DNA of 64,000 nucleotides from Torpedo marmorata (GCA_977017645.1 OZ360221.1:199578001-199642000); one strand, 5' to 3'; positions 37,329-52,379 are shown, counted from the first letter of the stretch. Made by a program: numbers and translations. The notes: a model not told the origin generated them from the sequence alone.

Positions 37329-37811
37329 TGTAACGACTTCGATCCAATTAATAGTCACTTGGAGGCTAGGTGAGACAGTTGTTCGTGATGCGTTTCAATG
37401 AATTTACTACCAAGTCCAATAGGTTTAAAATGTTTATTAACACACGATGACTTGTAGCAATCTTCAATAACTTAACTATCTTCTTTAACAAAATATGAAC
37501 AATCTGCGATAACGAAGTATAAACGATCCGTGCTAACGGTCAACGAAAATTATGAGAGCCTCACTCACCCTGCAAAACGTTACACCATGTTGTATAATAC
37601 TTTTCCCGATTCGCACTCTGCCCCACCGCGCATGCTCCAGCCGGCACTCATATACACCTATGCACTGAGCATGCTCCAGCCGGCACTCGCGCACGCGCAG
37701 AGTAGTTAATAGGCCTAACACGGCCTACTAAATTCCGTGATGCCTCTGATGCCCGCGGGATCAACGGAACGTCGCCATGGAGGTAAGTAACGAGCCTATT
37801 TGGCTCCAACA
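37329..37811 (-). mobile_element. Solo LTR related to the BEL LTRs at 44554 and 49697
   Basis: Reverse complement reads TGTTGGAGCC...ggatcgaagtcgttaCA. Shares tctcac.tagcctcca.gtgacta with the BEL LTR. 5-bp TSD cagac at 37324-37328 and 37812-37816. Empty site cagaccat at about 52166. Confidence 0.93.
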
Positions 37812-42930: not shown

Positions 42931-44240
42931 TGTCCTCTGGTTTGTATCTCACCTACCCTCAGTAGAAAAAGCCTATCTACATTTACTCTGTCTATCCCCC
43001 TCATAATTTTAAATACCTCTATCAAATCTCCCTCATTCCTCTATGCTCCAGGGAATAAAGTCCTAATGTGTTTAACCATTCCCTGTAACTCAGTCCCTGA
43101 AGTCCGGGCAACATCCTAGTAAATTTTCTCTGCACTCTTTCTATCTTATTGATATATTTCCTGTAGTTAGGTGACCAAAACTGCACACAATTCTCCAAAT
43201 TTGGCCTCACCAGTCTTATACAACTTTAACATAACATCCCAACTCCTATGCTCAATACTTTGATTTATGAAGGCCAATATGCCAAAAGCTCTCTTTACAA
43301 TCCTATCCACCTGTGACGCCACTTTCAGGGAATTATGTATCTGTATTCCCAGATCCCTCTGTTCTACCGCACTCCTCAGTGCCCTACCATTTACCGTGTA
43401 TGTCCTTTCTTGGTTTGTCTTTCCAAACTGCAACACCTCACACTTGTCTGCATTAAATTCCATTTCAATTTTTCAGCCCATTTTTCCAGCTGGCCCAGAT
43501 CCCTCTGCAAGCTTTGAAAACCTTCTTCACTGTTTACAACACCTCCAATCTTAGTGTCATCTGCAAACTTGCTGATCCAATTTACCACATTATCATCCAG
43601 ATCATTGATATAGATGACAAACAACAATGGTCCCAGCACCGATCCCTGAGGTACACCACTAGTCTCAGGCCTCCAGTCTGAGAAACAATCATCCACCACT
43701 ATTCTCTGGCGTCTCCTGTCCATCCATTGTCAAATCCAGTTCACTACTTCACCATGAATGCCTAGCGTCTGAACCTTCCTGACTAACCTCCCATGTGGGA
43801 CCTTGTCAAAGACCTTACTAAAGTCCATGTAAACAACATCCACAGCCTTTCCTTCGTCAACCTTCTTGGTAGCCTCCTCGAAAAATTCTATAAGGTTGGT
43901 TAAACATGACCTACCATGCACAAAGCCATGTTGACTATCCCTAATCAGTTTCTGGCTATCAAAATAATTGTATATCCAATCTCTTAGAACACCTTCCAAT
44001 AATTTTCCTACTACTGACGTCAGGCTCACCGGCCTATAATTTCCAGGGTTACTTTTGGAGCCTTTTATATAGACAATGGAACAACGTGAGCTACCCTCCA
44101 ATACTCTGGCACCACACCCATGGCTAAGAACATTTTAAATATTTCTGCCAGAGCCCCTGCAATTTCTACACTAGCCTCCCTCAATGACCGAGGGAATATC
44201 TTGTCAGGCCCTGGGGATTTATCCACCTTTATTTATTTCT
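42930..44240 (-). mobile_element. CR1 LINE RT fragment
   Basis: NYRPVSLTSVVGKLLE, SGVPQGSVLGPLLFVIYINDL and KFADDTK motifs. Confidence 0.95.
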
Positions 44241-44553
44241 CTGCAGCAACCATATCACACTGCGATGCAGCCAGCCAGGATGCTCCCAATAGAGCTCCTA
44301 TACAAGGGTGACATGATGGTGGCCGGTGGCCTTGCCCACCTCAGTCTTCTCAGGTGTGCAGTCGCTCGTGCATTTCCTGACAAGTGAGGAAATGTTGTAT
44401 GTCCAGGATAGATAACTACTTGAGTGGATTCCAAGGAACGGTGCTCTCTACTCTCTCCACTGCCAAGCTACTAATGTATAGAGGAGGGTGGTGGTCCGTG
44501 GTCCTCCTGAAGTCTACAGTCATCTTATTTGTCCTGTCCATGTTGAGACTCAG

Positions 44554-45138
44554 TGTAAGAGCCATAGGCTCATTAACTTACCTTGCTGCGGCGCTCCGGC
44601 GCCTCGTCGGCTTGTGGAGCGCTCGCGTTGTCTGTTGGTCCATCGTCGGCCCGTTCTGTGCTCTGTGCATGTGCTGGAGTGCCGACGGGCGCATGCGCAG
44701 TGTGGAGTGAGGTCATTATGCGCGTGGCAGCCTGGGAAATGTAGTATGCGCGGTGGAGGGTGCGCAGTGGTTTAGGGAGGGAGCTTGCGCAAATTTTCTA
44801 GAAAAGGAAAGGAATGAGATGTTAGGAGGGTGAGTGAGATCTCCATATCTTTATTGAACATTTTACATCGTTTTATAACGTTTTTACATCGTTTTACAGC
44901 GTTTTACAGTGTTTCATATCATTTTGGAATTGTTTAAAGAATCATTTAAAGGAACTCTTCATACATCATTTCAAGAACTGTTTATATTGAAGTATTGAAG
45001 ATTACTGCAAGTCACGTGTGTAAATAAAGGTTTTGAACATATTGGACTTTGTTAGTAAATTAATTAAAATGCGTCAAAGACAAAAGTATCTCACTTAGCC
45101 TCCAGGTGACTAAATGTTGGATCGAAGTCACCGTATTA
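44554..45138 (+). repeat. 5' LTR
   Basis: TGTAAGAGCC...ccgtatTA; near-identical to 49697-50281; AATAAA at about 45023. Confidence 0.97.
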
Positions 45139-45583
45139 TAGTCAATAAAAAGCTGGCTGTTTGGAACAGAAGTTTGAAAGAAAGAAGATAGAAAGAACTC
45201 TCTGTGCTTGGGACTGATATAAAATGGTGGCCATCTTGGAGATGCCTCGAGTTGGGGGCAGTTTGTAATCCACAACCACTGCCATGAATAACAGCCAGAG
45301 AGGGATTTAAAGCTTCAAATCTTATAGTAAAGTGTCCAAAATCCGTTGGAGAAACTATTTTTGGAAAATCAATGATATTAGTGACGGATGTTGTGGTTGA
45401 AACTCGTTTGTGGATTGCAGCACATTACAGTCATTTGAAGTGGTAGGCATAAGTCTGTGGACTCCTTCTGTGTATCTTTAGCAAGTAAGAACACAGATTG
45501 GAATTGCTGCCGCTGGTCCATTGGGGACTGTTGTTTGGCTGGTATTGTGTATGATTGAAGGAAAGAGGAACAAGACGAGTAAA

Positions 45584-46350
45584 ATGGCCGCAGCAGCCAC
45601 TGATACAGCAGCTACTGATATATCAGCAGCTGACGCATCAACCGCTGATGTTGCTGTTGAGGACCAACATATTGAAGACATGAAGGTTGCGGATATTAAA
45701 GAAGAATTGAAGCGACTGAAAAAGGACATAAGAGGAAATAAAAGGGTTCTTATCGAAAGATTGAAGCAGGCAAAGGATGAAGAGGCAGCTTCATTAAATG
45801 AACAAGAAGATAACTTGGAAATGGCTGAAATTGTGTCAACAAATGATGAAGAAATTAAAGTGGTTGAAGATGCAAAGGATATACAATTCTAATTGGATAA
45901 AGAGGTAAGTATGAAGACAGCATATGAACTGCAGGACGAAATACAAGCAAGTGACAGTGTCTCAAATGCTGAAAGCAGGAGAAGCAAAAGAAGTTCTGGT
46001 TCGAGCTCCAGAGTTTCTCGTACTTCAAGTTCTGCATCGTCACCTACAAAGATTGATGTTAGATTGGCCGCTCTTCTTGCACAACAAGAATTTCTTAAGG
46101 ATAAACATGTTTTAGAAGAACAGGAGGAGGAACTGAAGGAGGAGCAGCTGAGGCTGAACCAACAACTAAGAAAGAGACAAGAGCAGCTAAGAAAGAAAAA
46201 AGAGCAGCTAAGAAAGAAAAAAGAACAGCAGGAGCTGGAAGCAAACATTGCTATTGCCAAGGCAGAAAAAAAAGCAATAGAAGGCTCAATAGTATTTGGC
46301 GCTCGAAGTAAATTATCTAAAGTGTCTTATAATAAAAGGTCATATTTAAA
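45584..46350 (+). pseudogene. Polyprotein N-terminus: SAP domain (SAFB/SLTM-like) plus Gag coiled coil; one in-frame stop at 45890
   Basis: ATG at 45584 (aaaATGG). IEDMKVADIKEELKRLKKDIRGNKRVLIERLKQA at 45671-45772 fits the SAP pattern. The same frame continues into BEL-type DEI..SDSVSN..SSASS..AALLA..LKDKH.LEEQ. Confidence 0.85.
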
Positions 46351-46412
46351 AAGAGTCACAGGAAAAGAAACCAACCAAAAGGATAGATATTGTAGAACCA
46401 AGGATACAAGAT

Positions 46413-48458
46413 TTGCAAATACAAGGACAAATCTTTCAAGAGCATATTGGTAACGAGTCACATGTACCAATGGTAACATCTGAAGATAAGGCTGCGGCTT
46501 GGGTTCGGTCGAACGAAGCAGCTTCTTTGTTATTTGAGTCAAACATCAGAAATATGGAAGAAACTACACCAGTGAGGTTTCCAGATACATTGCATGCAAC
46601 AAGAAACAGTGAACAGAGCAATATATTGTCGTCCAAGGAAAGACAAAATGAAATTGCTGCATCATTGTTTCAGTTACAGTCTCTCTCTTCTTTACCCAAG
46701 AAAGAGATACAAACTTTTGATGGTGATCCACTTCAATATCAATCATTTATGAGATCTTTCAAACGCAATATTGAAGATAAATGTCAAGATCGTGATGAAT
46801 GTCTTTATTATTTGGAAATGTTCACAAAGGGACATCCAAAAGAATTGGTAAAGAGTTGTAAACAAATGTCTTCAGAAAGAGGATTAGACAAAGCTAAGGC
46901 TTTATTGGAACAATATTTTGGCAACAAGCATCGAATTGCTTTAGCTTATATGGATAAAGCTCTTAAATGGACATCAATAAAACAAAATGATGTAAAGGCT
47001 CTGCAAGAATATACTTTGTTTTTAAGAGGATGTTGTAATGCTATGGAAGAAATCGATAATATTCGTGAGCTTGAAGTGCATAGTAATATGCGAATCATCT
47101 TAGAAAAATTACCTTACAAGTTATGGGATAGATGGAGAGATTTGGCTTGTGATTTACAAGTAGATTATGGTCGAAAAATTGCCTTAAAGGATTTGGTAAA
47201 TTTTCTTGAACGACGGGTGTACGTTGAAACGGATCCACTATATGGAAATACCAGAGATAATTCTATGGGCAAAGATGTAAGGAAGTCTAACACACAGTCT
47301 AGTCCGAAATTGAAAAGGAGTACTTTTGCTACTAATGTGCAAGTTATAAGTAAAGAAAAGGACAAAGTAAATAAGGAAAAGGAAAGTTTGCCTAATGAAA
47401 AGAGTTGTTTGTTCTGTAAAGGTGGACATACTTTGGAAATGTGTTTACGATTGGAAAAGAAGGAACATAAGGAAAAAATCGCTTTCTTAAAGGAAAATGG
47501 AATATGTTTTAGCTGTCTGTGTAAAGGACACATCAGTAAAAACTGCGAGAAGCGAATTAATTGTAACATATGCAATTTGAAACATCCTAGAGTTTTGCAT
47601 ATCCATAACAGAAACAAGGAATTGGAAAAGGAGCAAACAGAAACAAAGGAAACAACAGAAAATAATGTTATAACCTCGGTTCAGACAAGTGGTCTTACCA
47701 GGGCCGGTGTGAATAACTGTAAACTTTCGATAGTGCCTGTACAAGTCAAGACCAAGAAAGGGGATGCAATAGTAAAAACATATGCATTTCTAGACCCAGG
47801 CAGCACTGCATCTTTTTGCACGGAAGGACTAATGAATAAACTTAATATTCAAGGAAAAAGATCAAGAATTATGTTAAAAACCATGGGACAAGAAAAGGTT
47901 GTTGAAACTAACATTGTTTCAGGCTTAGAGGTTGCTGGATTGGATGACAAAAATTTTTGTGATCTTCCAAGTGTATATACTCAGAAGACTATGCCTGTGA
48001 ATGAAGGAAATATTACTCATCAAAGGGATATCCATCATTTAGCTTATCTGTGGAAGGTTTATTTACCTGAAATTAATTCTGAAATAGAAATGCTGATTGG
48101 TTCAGATGTGCCAAAGGTTTTTGTACCAAAAGAAGTAATAGAGAGTAAAAGGAATGGACCTTATGCTGTTAAAACCATGCTTGGTTGGACAATCAATGGA
48201 CCACTGGAAAGAAATAATGATATTGCTCAGGAACAGTTAGCGATAAATATTAATAGAATTTCGGTTGAGAAAGTTGAAGAGTTAAGCGAAGAGCAAAAAA
48301 CCGTGAATAAGAAAATCACTTTTGAAGAAAAGAAAACAGATCAATGTGAAAATAAATCAATGGTATTTAAAACAACATTGAAGGAATTAATTTCGTCAGA
48401 AATGGATGAAAGTGAAGTATTAGAAGATGTTGCAAATAATACTATTGATCATGTGTAA
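46413..48458 (+). CDS. BEL Gag core (DUF1759-like), zinc knuckles and aspartic protease
   Basis: LPKKEIQTFDGDPLQY, CLFCKGGHTLEMC, CFSCLCKGHISKNC, CNICNLKHPRVLH, YAFLDPGSTASF and GPYAVKTMLGWTINGP. Confidence 0.95.
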   Translation: MQIQGQIFQEHIGNESHVPMVTSEDKAAAWVRSNEAASLLFESNIRNMEETTPVRFPDTLHATRNSEQSNILSSKERQNEIAASLFQLQSLSSLPKKEIQTFDGDPLQYQSFMRSFKRNIEDKCQDRDECLYYLEMFTKGHPKELVKSCKQMSSERGLDKAKALLEQYFGNKHRIALAYMDKALKWTSIKQNDVKALQEYTLFLRGCCNAMEEIDNIRELEVHSNMRIILEKLPYKLWDRWRDLACDLQVDYGRKIALKDLVNFLERRVYVETDPLYGNTRDNSMGKDVRKSNTQSSPKLKRSTFATNVQVISKEKDKVNKEKESLPNEKSCLFCKGGHTLEMCLRLEKKEHKEKIAFLKENGICFSCLCKGHISKNCEKRINCNICNLKHPRVLHIHNRNKELEKEQTETKETTENNVITSVQTSGLTRAGVNNCKLSIVPVQVKTKKGDAIVKTYAFLDPGSTASFCTEGLMNKLNIQGKRSRIMLKTMGQEKVVETNIVSGLEVAGLDDKNFCDLPSVYTQKTMPVNEGNITHQRDIHHLAYLWKVYLPEINSEIEMLIGSDVPKVFVPKEVIESKRNGPYAVKTMLGWTINGPLERNNDIAQEQLAININRISVEKVEELSEEQKTVNKKITFEEKKTDQCENKSMVFKTTLKELISSEMDESEVLEDVANNTIDHV

Positions 48459-48484
48459 TTGAATCAAATATAGGAATAAAACAA

Positions 48485-49333
48485 GTGACTGAAAACAAAT
48501 CTGAATGTAGATTTTGTAGTTCAGAGATTACAACAGACAAAGCTAATGAAGAAAGATTACAATGTGATGTAAAACTGGAAAACACAGAAAATTGTGCTGA
48601 TGGAATAAAGAATAATGTGAATGATAATTTAATGCAATTGAATTCAGAGAACAAAATGTTGAAAGGGGAATTGGAAATATTAGATAATCAAGAAAACAGT
48701 AAACAGAAAGATTTAATTGTAAGTAAAACTTGCAAAGTCAGAAAGCGGAAGAAAAGAATAACTGCTGAAGAAATGAATACAGTTATTGAGGAAAGAGATT
48801 CAGCATTATCAAAATGTAAAAGGTTGGAGGAAGAGATTAATGTTTTGAAAGAGAACAAGTTATTGGTTAATAACTCAAAACAGTTGACTCTAAAAACCAA
48901 TCAAGAATGTAAATTGAATGTTCAACAATTAACAATGCAGAAAGAATGTGATATTGCATTGCAGAAATGTAACAAGCAAGACGAAGAAATTAAAAAATTT
49001 CAAGTTTGCCGCAACAGGATTGACAATGGAAATATCCATGTATCACATGATATTTTGACTTCAGATCAAATTATTAATTTCTCGGAAAGAACTGAGACTG
49101 AATTGAAAGTTGCAAAATTGGATTTAGAATTGCAGGAAAGAGCAATAGAAACCAGATTGGTTAAACAGACCTGTTTAAAATCGAAAGGATCAGATAAATA
49201 TTCAAATTCTAATTCTAAGAGTTTAAATTCTTCACATGAGAAGTGGAATACTGAAGAAAGGAATAAAGTGAAACGACATGCTGAAGAAGTGCCTTGTGTT
49301 AAATTCAAAAGAAAAACTATCTATTTTATCTGA
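48485..49333 (+). CDS. Coiled-coil ORF containing a MIPOL1-like segment (48713-49006) in place of pol
   Basis: RITAEEMNTVIEERDSALSKCKRLEEE closely resembles vertebrate MIPOL1 as I recall it (RITAEEMSALIEERDAALSKCKRLEQE). Weaker similarity continues to EEIKKFQV. Confidence 0.8.
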   Translation: MTENKSECRFCSSEITTDKANEERLQCDVKLENTENCADGIKNNVNDNLMQLNSENKMLKGELEILDNQENSKQKDLIVSKTCKVRKRKKRITAEEMNTVIEERDSALSKCKRLEEEINVLKENKLLVNNSKQLTLKTNQECKLNVQQLTMQKECDIALQKCNKQDEEIKKFQVCRNRIDNGNIHVSHDILTSDQIINFSERTETELKVAKLDLELQERAIETRLVKQTCLKSKGSDKYSNSNSKSLNSSHEKWNTEERNKVKRHAEEVPCVKFKRKTIYFI

Positions 49334-49400
49334 GGAAGATTTGAAGTTTACTGGTTGACGTTTTAACTCAAAGATTATAGAGATAAAAGAACTTTAAAGA

Positions 49401-49493
49401 GGCATTGTGATTATTATGGATAATTCAACTTCAAGAAACTCCTGGTTACTTGGAAAAATTATTGAGACTTTTCAAGACAAAGAGGAACTTTGA
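49401..49493 (+). pseudogene. Remnant of the BEL integrase C-terminal domain (DUF5641-like)
   Basis: Manual translation GIVIIMDNSTSRNSWLLGKIIETFQDKEEL* fits the GD.V.I.D...PRN.W.LG.I...FPD pattern. Confidence 0.8.
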
Positions 49494-49696
49494 TAAATGT
49501 AAACTGACTTTATTTGTTGTTGTATATTTCACAGGCTACAGACTTTTGTTGAATCAGAGTTATGGTAAACTCTAGATTTATGAAGAAGGAAGAAAGAAGA
49601 TTTGTATTGTTTGAATGTTACGGTTATTGTTATTATAATTTTATAGTGTAATTATTATTCAAGACATTGCGTCTAATTATAATAATTAGGGGCCGG

Positions 49697-50281
49697 TGTA
49701 AGAGCCGTAGGCTCATTAACTTACCTTGCTGCGGCGCTCCGGCGCCTCGTCGGCTTGTGGAGCGCTCGCGTTGTCTGTTGGGCCGTCGTCGGCCCGTTCT
49801 GTGCTCTGCGCATGCGCTGGAGTGCCGACGGGCGCATGCGCAGTGTGGAGTGAGGTCATTGTGCGCGTGGCAGCCTGGGAAATGTAGTATGCGCGGTGGA
49901 GGGTGCGCAGTGGTTTAGGGAGGGAGCTTGCGCAAATTTTCTAGAAAAGGAAAGGAATGAGATGTTAGGAGGGTGAGTGAGATCTCCATATCTTTATTGA
50001 ACGTTTTACATCGTTTTATAACGTTTTTACATCGTTTTACAGCGTTTTACAGTGTTTCATATCGTTTTGGAATTGTTTAAAGAATCATTTAAAGGAACTC
50101 TTCATACATCATTTCAAGAACTGTTTATATTGAAGTATTGAAGATTACTGCAAGTCACCTGTGTAAATAAAGGTTTTGAACATATTGGATTTTGTTAGTA
50201 AATTAATTAAAACGCGTCAAAGACAAAAGTATCTCACTTAGCCTCCAGGTGACTAAATGTTGGATCGAAGTCACCGTAATA
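49697..50281 (+). repeat. 3' LTR
   Basis: TGTAAGAGCC...ccgtaaTA, preceded by the PPT and followed by TSD ctcag. Confidence 0.97.
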
Positions 50282-52379
50282 CTCAGGTTGTTATTTACGC
50301 ACCATTTCACGAGATTTTCCATCTCCTCTGTAGTGCGACTCATTGCTGTTGCTGATGAGGCCAACTACAGTTGTGTCATATGCAAACTTGATGACTCTGT
50401 TGGAGCTGGATCTGGCGTGGGTCAGTAGCATTAACAGGAGCGGGCTGAGCACGCAGCCCTGATGTGCGCCAGTGCTCAGCATGATGGTGCTTGACGTTCT
50501 GCTGCCGACCTGGACAATTCTGTGTTCTTTCCGTTAGGAAGTCCAGAACCCAGTTAGAGAGAGGGGTTTTGAGTCCCAGCGAGGACAGCTTCTCCACCAG
50601 CCTCTGGGGAATGAGCTGAAGTCAATGAACATCAGCCTGGCGTATGAGGCATTGTTCTCCAGGTGGGTCAGAACAGAGTAGAGGGACACGTTTATAGCAT
50701 CATAAGTGGAACAGTTCTATCTTCAGGTGAGCTGAAAGGGGTCCAGTGTCACTGGGAGGTTTGCTTTGATGCGTTCCATCATCAGATGCTCGAAACATTT
50801 CATAATGGTCAAGGTCAGTGCGACTGGGCGGTAATCGTTGAGGCTTGTTCCTGTCGCCCTCTTTGGTTCCGGGATGATGATGGCTGTGTTGAATGGGGAC
50901 AATGGACTGCAGCGGTGAGGTGTTGAAGATGTCCGTTAAGACCTCAGTCAGTTGGTCTGCGCATACCAGGTATGTTCTCTGGTCCCGCTGCCATGTGTGG
51001 TTTCACCTTGGATAGGGTTCTTCTCACCTCAGCCGCAGCGAGGGACAGGGAACTTTCTTCGGCGTCAGCCTTTTCTTCTTGTTGAACCGTGCGTAGAAGG
51101 TGTTAAGCATGTCTAGAAGAGAAGCGTCATTGTCTTTGACTTGCAAGGTTGACTTGTGGTCTGTTATAAGTTTGATCCCTTGCCTCATGCGCCTAGTGTT
51201 GCCGGTAACTCACAGCTGTCTGTGGATCGTCTGTACATACCCCTGCTTTGCCTTCCGGATTGCATGGGAGAGTTCAACACTGGCTGATCTTAGTGCCATC
51301 TTATCTCCTATCCTGAAGGGAGCATCACGAGCTCTGACAAGTGCATGGATCTCTGCATCCAATCGTGGTTTCTGGTTAGCCCTGGTTGTGAAGCATTTGA
51401 TCTTGGTGACATCCTCAAGCACTTACTGACGTGGTCAGTCAAAGAGCTCGTGTCCTCCTCAATGTTTACATGATGCTGCCGCAAAACACCGAATTTCATG
51501 ACTTGTTCATGACAATAAATTCTAATTCTAATTCTGACTGTTGTAGGTGGCTGCCTCCCTGAAGCAGTTCCAGTCTGTGGTCTCAAGGCAGTCATGTTGT
51601 GCTGCTGCTGTCCCCCACCCCCGGCCATGTCCTGGTCTCCCTGTGAACTGGCATTGTTAGTTTTGCCAGCGGCCTTTATGCTGGAGTTAGCAGGTCTGAT
51701 ATATGATCCGAGTATCCAAGATGGGGGCGAGAGGCAGTCTTGTACACGTTCGTGTACACCCTATCCAGGGTGTTCTCTCCTCTTGTGGCCAGGTGCACCT
51801 ACATGGTAGATCTGTTTTCAGTCCGTACTATTACATGACAATAAAGGAATCTTGAATGAGCTGGAGAAACTCAGCAGGTTATGCAGCATCCATACATTTT
51901 GGGTCTTGTCCCTTCATCACGTTCAACCTTACCTGACAACGGGCCCAGGCCCAAAACTTTGGTAACCCTTCACTTCTTATGGATACTGTGTGACCTGCTG
52001 AGTTTCTCCACCACATTTGTGTATTGCATCCGACCCCACCATCTGCAGACTTTCTTGTTTAATCAGTATAAATAACTACTTGTCAGACAGCAAGCACATG
52101 TTGGGACAAATGGTGATTCTGATTGGGACTTTGTCCTGAAACGTTAGAGTTGCACAGCATGGAAACAGACCATACAACCAAATTCACAAAAACTGCCTAC
52201 TTGAGGTACTGTACTTCCCAAAGTTCCCTATCCCTCTAACCTTCTCCTATCCATGTACTCTTCTGCATGTTTAATGAACTTTGAATTGTACCCACCTCAT
52301 GACCTCCCCAGGCAGCTTGATCCACCTTCCCACTCTCCTTTGTGTTGTCCCTCGGGCCCCCTTTAAACCTTAAATCTCT

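Follow-up and report, generated by a model that had tools for sequence, protein, structure and literature searches.

Architecture of the element

We analyzed a stretch of 64,000 nucleotides (nt) from Torpedo marmorata (GCA_977017645.1 OZ360221.1:199578001-199642000), hereafter the window, which carries at 44554-50281 a BEL/Pao-type retroelement bounded by long terminal repeats (LTRs). Judged by its sequence, the element is a non-autonomous derivative of BEL/Pao and not an autonomous member. Directly behind the protease, and in the same frame, its pol region has given way to spliced pieces of three host genes, BRCA1, MIPOL1 and Elongin A, and the two MIPOL1 parts meet at a back-splice junction whose template was most likely a circular RNA. 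The features of the window copy are as follows.

44549-44553, plus strand: 5′ target-site duplication (TSD), 5 bp, the same as 50282-50286
44554-45138, plus strand: 5′ LTR, 585 bp, TG...TA ends, 89.5% gap-free identity to the LTR of a pol-bearing helper
45139-45583, plus strand: leader, 95.3% identical to the helper (gap-free), its start position common to copies and helper
45584-45772, plus strand: start codon and SAP domain, derived from host SLTM exon 1 (Pfam SAP at amino acids (aa) 30-63)
45893-47700, plus strand: BEL Gag, with linker, DUF1759 core (46716-47141) and three Cys/His knuckles (47406-47600)
47701-48296, plus strand: BEL aspartic protease, catalytic Asp at 47793
48297-48709, plus strand: captured spliced BRCA1 segment, of which skate aa ~200-350 remain (to ~386 in old copies)
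48710-49014, plus strand: captured MIPOL1, C-terminal arc, stingray aa ~348-453, ending at the host splice donor
49014-49015, plus strand: back-splice (non-colinear exon-exon) junction, eroded by substitutions in the window
49015-49171, plus strand: captured MIPOL1, upstream arc, aa 194-~275, starting at the host splice acceptor, with an internal in-frame deletion
49172-49375, plus strand: captured Elongin A segment, heavily deleted, with a break near 49318 and the family stop at 49356
49399-49490, plus strand: integrase C-terminal remnant, out of frame, E 1e-7 to the full BEL polyprotein, 89% nt identity to the helper
49682-49696, plus strand: purine-tract position before the 3′ LTR, identical in nearly all listed copies and the helper
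49697-50281, plus strand: 3′ LTR, 585 bp
50282-50286, plus strand: 3′ TSD, matching the 5′ TSD

The two LTRs differ at 12 positions (2.1%) without gaps, and the 5-bp TSD flanks both ends. An earlier note on this DNA had described an intact LTR pair diverged by about 2%, a TSD and a purine tract, all of which are borne out, the tract being common to nearly all listed copies. BEL/Pao elements typically have TG...CA termini; in the window (45132-45138 and 50275-50281), most copies and the helper, the ends are instead TG...TA, and in a few copies the LTR ends 3 nt earlier or 4 nt later. At the primer-site position the leader has a sequence conserved among the copies and the helper that follows the LTR and lacks a TGG start, and its last ~12 nt resemble the 5′ untranslated region (UTR) and ATG context of SLTM.

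Pfam searches placed SAP (E 2.8e-8) and the DUF1759 Gag domain above cut-off and the DUF1758 BEL protease below it (E 0.0085). Gag and protease of the window are 55% identical to the BEL relative P0133, with the motifs of both proteins conserved; against the autonomous fish BEL/Pao elements P0133 and P0137 together, Gag-protease identity was 54-61%, and the relatives share the Pfam set. Homology to a complete BEL polyprotein stops at ~48296. Neither reverse transcriptase (RT) nor RNase H was found in the window element by Pfam or BEL comparison, and the sole trace of pol is a 29-residue integrase end at 49404-49490, in line with the earlier proposal that no pol lies between the protease and an integrase remnant.

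Host origin of the captured segments

The best-ranked matches of the 3′ frame were to MIPOL1 (best E 5e-25; 120 of 186 matches listed), and the named matches among those listed were all MIPOL1, save one hypothetical and one unnamed protein with the same Pfam families. A genome search with stingray MIPOL1 yielded 40,398 candidates; the scored copies were intronless, their identity over residues ~324-453 lying mostly at 70-86%, and another 46 matches covered residues ~194-226, adjoining the first block in the five that were traced. Four old copies were fetched as the best MIPOL1 scorers, and in these the order after the protease is BRCA1, MIPOL1 345-453, MIPOL1 194-279 and Elongin A. The window holds eroded versions of every one of these parts. 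With skate and stingray genes as the best matches, the host reads as a cartilaginous fish, and probably a ray.

The BRCA1 piece of an old copy was 68% identical to skate BRCA1 (E 1.5e-46) and gave three matches in 1.84 billion sequences, two of them BRCA1; the third, P0124, was dropped as an unrelated repeat protein. In the Atlas search BRCA1 came up as a sub-0.9 lead, and the BRCA1 pieces of the window itself gave E 9e-12 and 8e-17. Elongin A was the sole PDB match of two old-copy pieces (E 0.06 and 0.08), while another old copy had Pfam Elongin_A above cut-off and a PDB match at E 3e-19; the Elongin A region of the window is 73% identical in nt to an old copy. Host exons in the genome are 87-97% identical in nt to the old copies, or 81% for one copy of the four at one exon. 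Individually, the host BRCA1 exon is 87-93% identical to the old copies and 77% to the window, and the 95-nt MIPOL1 exon matches the four old copies at 96-97% and the window at 74/95 positions, ungapped. The young cargo as a whole is 77-85% identical to host exons.

Introns are missing at the checked BRCA1, MIPOL1 and SLTM joins, and all three cargo captures are in sense orientation and in frame with Gag-protease. The captured BRCA1 lacks RING and BRCT, and the conserved Elongin A motifs are deleted in the young lineage. One old copy retains ~50 residues beyond the protease end together with more upstream BRCA1 sequence, so the present protease-BRCA1 join is a later deletion. At the start of the host BRCA1 exon, three codons present in the skate gene and in the captured copies are missing, so the capture is older than the host deletion.

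The SAP domain at the other end of the frame was assigned through the old copies, whose best match was SLTM (69%, E 2e-7, three matches among 38 candidates), Met to Met. Searches of PDB and Atlas gave no name for the SAP donor; the protein search and the host exon did. Host SLTM exon 1, located 27 kb upstream of the SLTM RRM exons, is 87-88% identical in nt to two old copies, including ~38 nt of 5′ UTR, and 68% identical to the window over 95 nt. Neither SAP nor the tested host pieces occurred in any of 120 database BEL relatives, whose Gag begins with a different ~150-aa domain. The pol-bearing helper carries SAP as well (91% aa identity), and one old pol-bearing copy retains the SLTM 5′ UTR and ATG, the SAP core having been lost by an in-frame deletion. 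These comparisons indicate that the SLTM-derived SAP module is shared with the helper and not special to the chimera. The donors are thus almost certainly four: SLTM, BRCA1, MIPOL1 and Elongin A. The earlier note had placed two host-like modules at the polyprotein ends; both are host-derived, but the cargo comprises BRCA1, permuted MIPOL1 and Elongin A, and the SAP end is not confined to this element.

A back-splice junction within the MIPOL1 cargo

Host MIPOL1 lies on the minus strand of C40. Its exon reaching aa 193 is at 64.641 Mb and ends AG/GT, followed by exons for aa 194-238 at 64.592 Mb and aa 276-316 at 64.508 Mb and by one at 64.386 Mb that ends with aa 453. In the elements this final exon, whose donor site is at C40:64,385,712, is joined to the aa 194-238 exon, whose acceptor site is at C40:64,591,881, 206 kb upstream, and the join is base-exact. 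Around it, 12+12, 12+10, 12+11 and 10+12 bases match in the four old copies (of 12 on each side). In the window the last base of the donor exon is 49014 and the first base of the acceptor exon is 49015, with no gap and with 74/95 and 55/84 positions identical; shifts of 1-3 nt reduce the matches to background (20-31). The junction is colinear in 27/27 young copies. A search pattern for the donor had one genome match, and that for the acceptor had three, of which one falls within the host gene and in the order expected; a version of the acceptor pattern stricter on the intron side gave no matches, and the looser one was used. Both splice sites are in phase 2, so a 780-nt circle would be in frame.

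A downstream donor joined base-exact to an upstream acceptor is the arrangement left by back-splicing, and the template of the MIPOL1 cargo was therefore, in all likelihood, a circular RNA. By this sequence test the element qualifies as a circular-RNA-derived retrocopy. The junction is its most unusual feature, one that the earlier note missed. A permuted MIPOL1 might also arise through trans-splicing, through a pair of RT jumps along a linear mRNA, or from an exon-repeat mRNA of a tandem duplication that has since been lost. In support of such routes, and weighing against a circle, the linear MIPOL1 mRNA has a 2-nt AG similarity at the back-splice position, and other routes to non-colinear junctions are mentioned in the literature (PMC4897178). 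However, both ends of the junction fall base-exactly at splice sites, the host MIPOL1 exons tested are single-copy, and the captured arcs are confined to the circle, MIPOL1 residues outside 194-453 not being found in the five copies examined. By a rough estimate, two AG-limited jumps would reach the exon ends about 1 time in 200. We consider these non-circular routes improbable.

Inside one copy, at C42:9563886-9564788, tandem 405-nt units run across the MIPOL1 back-splice junction. An origin of this locus as a rolling-circle concatemer was rejected, as a period of 405 nt is too short for a circle of 780 nt.

A large family with an open reading frame

Counts for the family come from 47 loci that were fetched, together with searches of the genome. 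A 30-mer taken from the MIPOL1 cargo had 12,035 + 12,169 = 24,204 genome matches at up to 2 mismatches, and its reversed control had none. A DNA search returned 11,225 candidates, of which the 40 scored were all 92-100% identical; the 30 young copies used below are the closest of these candidates. LTR-pair divergence was 0.6-4.0% in 17 of 18 listed two-LTR copies and 9.9% in one truncated copy; 11 of the 18 have a perfect 5-bp TSD at the standard ends, and the TSDs differ. The earlier note had named misassembly and a single copy as outcomes that would count against it; with thousands of dispersed copies and differing TSDs, both are excluded. Its proposal of a non-autonomous high-copy lineage fits the match count and the absence of pol.

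Natural frames through the cargo reach 1200 or more codons in 11 of 133 scored copies and 1150 or more in 6 of 29 other fetched copies, so that the single long frame, which the earlier note obtained by repairing three lesions, is demonstrated without repair. The ATG is kept in 27/27 copies. A stop at ~49356 is present in 25 of 26, so the family frame extends beyond the end at 49333 given previously. The lesions themselves are real: the stop at 45890 is private to the window (1/27 copies), and breaks occur near 46350 (3/29) and 48449 (6/30). The two frameshifts, however, are short deletions relative to most sister copies, where the earlier note saw inserted bases, and a fourth break lies near 49318 (1/26). 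A domesticated host gene, recognizable as a single conserved locus under purifying selection, does not fit 24,204 matches, four breaks in the window copy and a cargo omega of about 1.

In Gag, A content has risen from 0.33-0.34 to 0.38-0.39, in the chimera as in the helper; the cargo has gone from 0.40 to 0.45. This indicates a lineage-wide mutation bias. Contigs from three runs cover the element, one spanning 48026-48951 and another 48953-49075; these possibly represent the assembly's own sample and are uninformative on expression.

The window copy is inserted in decayed LINE-like RT sequence on the minus strand (43700-44550 and 50290-51000). A 148-bp piece of the same LTR family, 80% identical, lies at 37335-37479 on the minus strand. 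The other long frames of the window resemble what we take to be LINE and Penelope-type fragments.

Selection on Gag, protease and cargo

Codon models gave omega 0.42-0.44 for Gag against the old relatives (p<1e-5) and 0.24 for the protease (p 8e-10), whose catalytic Asp is kept in 30/30 copies. Both proteins are thus under purifying selection, in agreement with the earlier suggestion that the lineage makes its own particle and protease. For the frame as a whole, we compared stops among single-copy changes (26/421) with those among changes common to two or more copies (0/196; p 5e-5), excluding CpG-type changes and gapped codons. The five deletions fixed in the young cargo (3, 24, 120, 81 and 201 nt) are all multiples of three. 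No cargo stop has been fixed after 0.7-0.9 changes per codon, and in neutral simulation the chance of no stop was 0.003-0.027. Taken together, these data suggest that selection probably keeps the cargo frame open, consistent with the earlier view that the fusion stayed open during replication.

Cargo omega between old and young copies was 1.27 and 1.11, neither different from 1. The earlier note had taken neutral evolution of the cargo as contrary evidence; at the amino acid level the cargo does evolve in roughly this way, but its frame stays open. Several observations weigh against selection on the frame or against free drift of the residues behind it. Omega for BRCA1 was 0.42 between host and window (p 0.04) and 0.46 between host and one old copy (p 0.013), so that some constraint may act on BRCA1 residues; the host-versus-window value for MIPOL1 was 1.33. 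Restricted to the cargo, the stop test was not significant (7/115 versus 0/58, p 0.10). An early-cargo frameshift is common to 6 of 30 copies, two of which have numerous other rare alleles in common, which suggests that a truncated variant has replicated. Finally, the old copies, chosen as the best MIPOL1 scorers, are biased toward host likeness.

The cargo could on these grounds be an unselected stuffer that does no more than hold the RNA at a length suited to packaging; each wave would then descend from a few master copies whose frame happened to be open. An omega of 1.1-1.3, the cargo-only stop test (p 0.10), the truncated sub-lineage and the similar rise of A content in Gag and cargo would all fit. 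Against this stand the fixed deletions, all five of which preserve the frame (a chance of about 0.004 for random sizes), the lack of a fixed stop at that depth of change, and the sense, in-frame orientation of all three captures, and we regard a stuffer as unlikely.

A protein role for the tail is possible, though we hold it with reserve: a coiled coil could replace Pol as a dimerization module or spacer that tunes protease activation or assembly, in which case helix and length would matter and exact residues would not. Leucine zippers fused behind the HIV protease alter processing. A single-sequence structure model of the tail has helices at 29-90, 106-192 and 205-243, at low confidence (pLDDT 59, pTM 0.22), and a heptad peak at aa ~105-135. 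Two of the 120 BEL relatives, the teleost gene models P0154 and P0220, leave BEL at the same post-protease point and continue into unrelated coiled-coil-like tails; these are, however, automated gene models and may be independent captures or prediction artifacts. Cargo omega of about 1, deletions of 81 and 45 nt within the MIPOL1 coil regions and the early frameshift in 6/30 copies also speak against a coiled-coil role. Another gene model, P0168 from tilapia, has a DnaJ domain in place of most of pol between the BEL protease and the integrase end, and its cluster contains three models of similar length.

An open frame retained for the stability of the RNA is the explanation toward which we lean, and it is favored over a coiled-coil role. 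If translation ended with the protease, 1.4 kb would separate the stop from the 3′ LTR, compared with 0.34 kb, and a 3′ UTR of that length may destabilize the genomic RNA.

At the other end of the polyprotein, shared columns in the SAP region comprise 25 nonsynonymous and 2 synonymous changes. Over SAP and the Gag N terminus (45584-46120), shared changes were almost entirely nonsynonymous, 1 synonymous to 37, differing from private changes at p 5e-4. Diversifying selection on this region is possible. The SAP counts, the MIPOL1 omega of 1.33 and the fact that all four donors are, from general knowledge, nuclear or germ-line-relevant genes would also suit a device of host conflict. In such a device, which would evolve under a mixture of positive and purifying selection, the host-derived pieces would serve as decoys of BRCA1, Elongin A or chromatin partners, or would put a cost to the host on silencing by small RNAs. 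Such a role seems quite doubtful to us, with a BRCA1 piece devoid of RING and BRCT, with Elongin A stripped of its conserved motifs in the young lineage, and with a young cargo just 77-85% identical to host exons.

A pol-bearing helper and exchange of backbones

The earlier note had proposed looking for a BEL partner with the same LTR, and such a copy exists. We compared one young and one old pol-bearing copy. The young one shares LTR family, leader and purine tract with the window, its own LTRs being 99.7% identical to each other, and gap-free identities to the window are 89.5% (LTR), 95.3% (leader), 96.4% (Gag) and 92.8% (protease); it carries the RT start and the integrase end. A genome search with BEL RT gave 8,836 candidates, and 24 of 150 RT matches lie in frames of 2000 or more codons; the top RT matches to a database relative belong to an older group and not to the partner of the window. 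That the chimera depends on a helper is, from these sequence comparisons, very nearly certain.

The old pol-bearing copy is 92% identical to an old chimera and 75% to the window, and the window is 70% identical to the old chimera; backbone identities are 92% and 90% within groups and 70-75% between them. In the tree, the old chimera groups with the old helper and the young chimeras with the young helper (support 1.0). The cargo joins are common to both backbones, so the cargo must have switched backbone at least once. On C187, one chimeric copy has a pol-bearing helper copy within its BRCA1 cargo; the same score and a 1353-codon frame recur in six small contigs, which are perhaps duplicated assembly or an array.

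Proposed origin and mechanism

The element is best explained, we think with good probability, as a helper-dependent BEL/Pao satellite built by RT template switching onto host RNAs in particles. The lineage that includes the helper acquired SLTM exon 1 as the start of Gag, and with it a host SAP DNA-binding head. In the chimera, pol then gave way to BRCA1, one pass of the MIPOL1 circle over the back-splice, Elongin A and the integrase end; these products are seen, and template switching is their presumed source. Given the shared LTR, leader and purine tract and the conserved Gag-protease, the satellite would supply its own Gag and protease and borrow RT and integrase from the helper. Recombination with the helper, as the tree shows, has put the cargo on the newer backbone, and the tail would since have been kept translatable in cis while its residues were free to drift.

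A more speculative extension, to which we give only modest credence, is a two-member system. In it, the diversifying SAP head of the helper would tether Gag to chromatin, and the circular-RNA-derived coiled coil of the satellite would substitute for Pol and supply Pol-free Gag-protease to a family whose frame otherwise yields Gag and Pol at 1:1. If so, the swap of Pol for a host coiled coil behind the protease would be a repeated BEL strategy in fishes.

Relation to known systems and significance

LTR-mediated retroposition in animals, as presented in the accessible parts of Tan et al. 2016 (PMC5131818), places pieces of host mRNA between intact LTRs in place of the internal open reading frame. 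The products include multi-gene chimeras (one in the Pao element BATUMI, one in mosquito BEL18), are often in frame and can retranspose non-autonomously. The cases described there are young and occupy few insertion sites, with loss-of-function changes in 14 of 21 older ones, and the word "circular" has no occurrence in the text. In its replacement of the internal frame by host sequence, its absence of introns at the checked joins and its further rounds of transposition, our element is alike and, by its sequence, would be a case of this process. Relative to the cases in those parts, it differs in its ~24,000 cargo matches, long-lived open frame, back-spliced donor and exchange of backbones.

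The mouse circRFWD2 pseudogenes (Dong et al. 2016, PMC4897178) have a non-colinear exon-exon junction, no poly(A) and an LTR association (MMERVK10C-int, Fig. 1D legend); 33 high-confidence copies are termed pseudogenes there, and their mechanism is called mysterious. Here, in contrast, a complete LTR element contains the junction, which reads in frame with Gag-protease and exists in hundreds of times more copies. Maize Bs1 (PMC13317346) is an LTR element with three host-gene pieces in one chimeric frame; it is a plant element, without a circular-RNA donor in the passages available, whereas here a fourth capture gives the start codon, and in the helper too.

The element also resembles replication-defective transducing retroviruses such as avian E26 gag-myb-ets, which need a helper, have lost pol and carry Gag in one frame with two or more host genes. 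It differs from these retroviruses, and is not a member of that group, as a germ-line transposon without env in which selection for donor function is not evident. Our literature search, which apart from the cited papers covered titles and the openings of abstracts and included no query on ray genomes with BRCA1, found no report of this element or of the combination of four donors, a circular donor, an open Gag-protease fusion and ~24,000 copies; the supplementary locus tables of Dong et al. and Tan et al. could hold closer cases.

Capture by template switching in an LTR particle, followed by amplification, would offer a route for the retrotransposition of circular RNA that was left open for circRFWD2 (PMC4897178). 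The family moreover documents how host genes were captured one after another: stages of different age persist side by side in one genome, so order, junctions and selection can be read from them. It separates selection for an open frame from selection on residues, and it presents a host exon that an active Gag has taken up as its start. If all 24,204 matches were full-length, the family would make up as much as about 2% of the 6.2-Gb genome (138 Mb) and carry pieces of BRCA1, MIPOL1 and Elongin A throughout it, with consequences for the size of the genome, for its annotation and for the cross-talk of small RNAs with DNA-repair genes.

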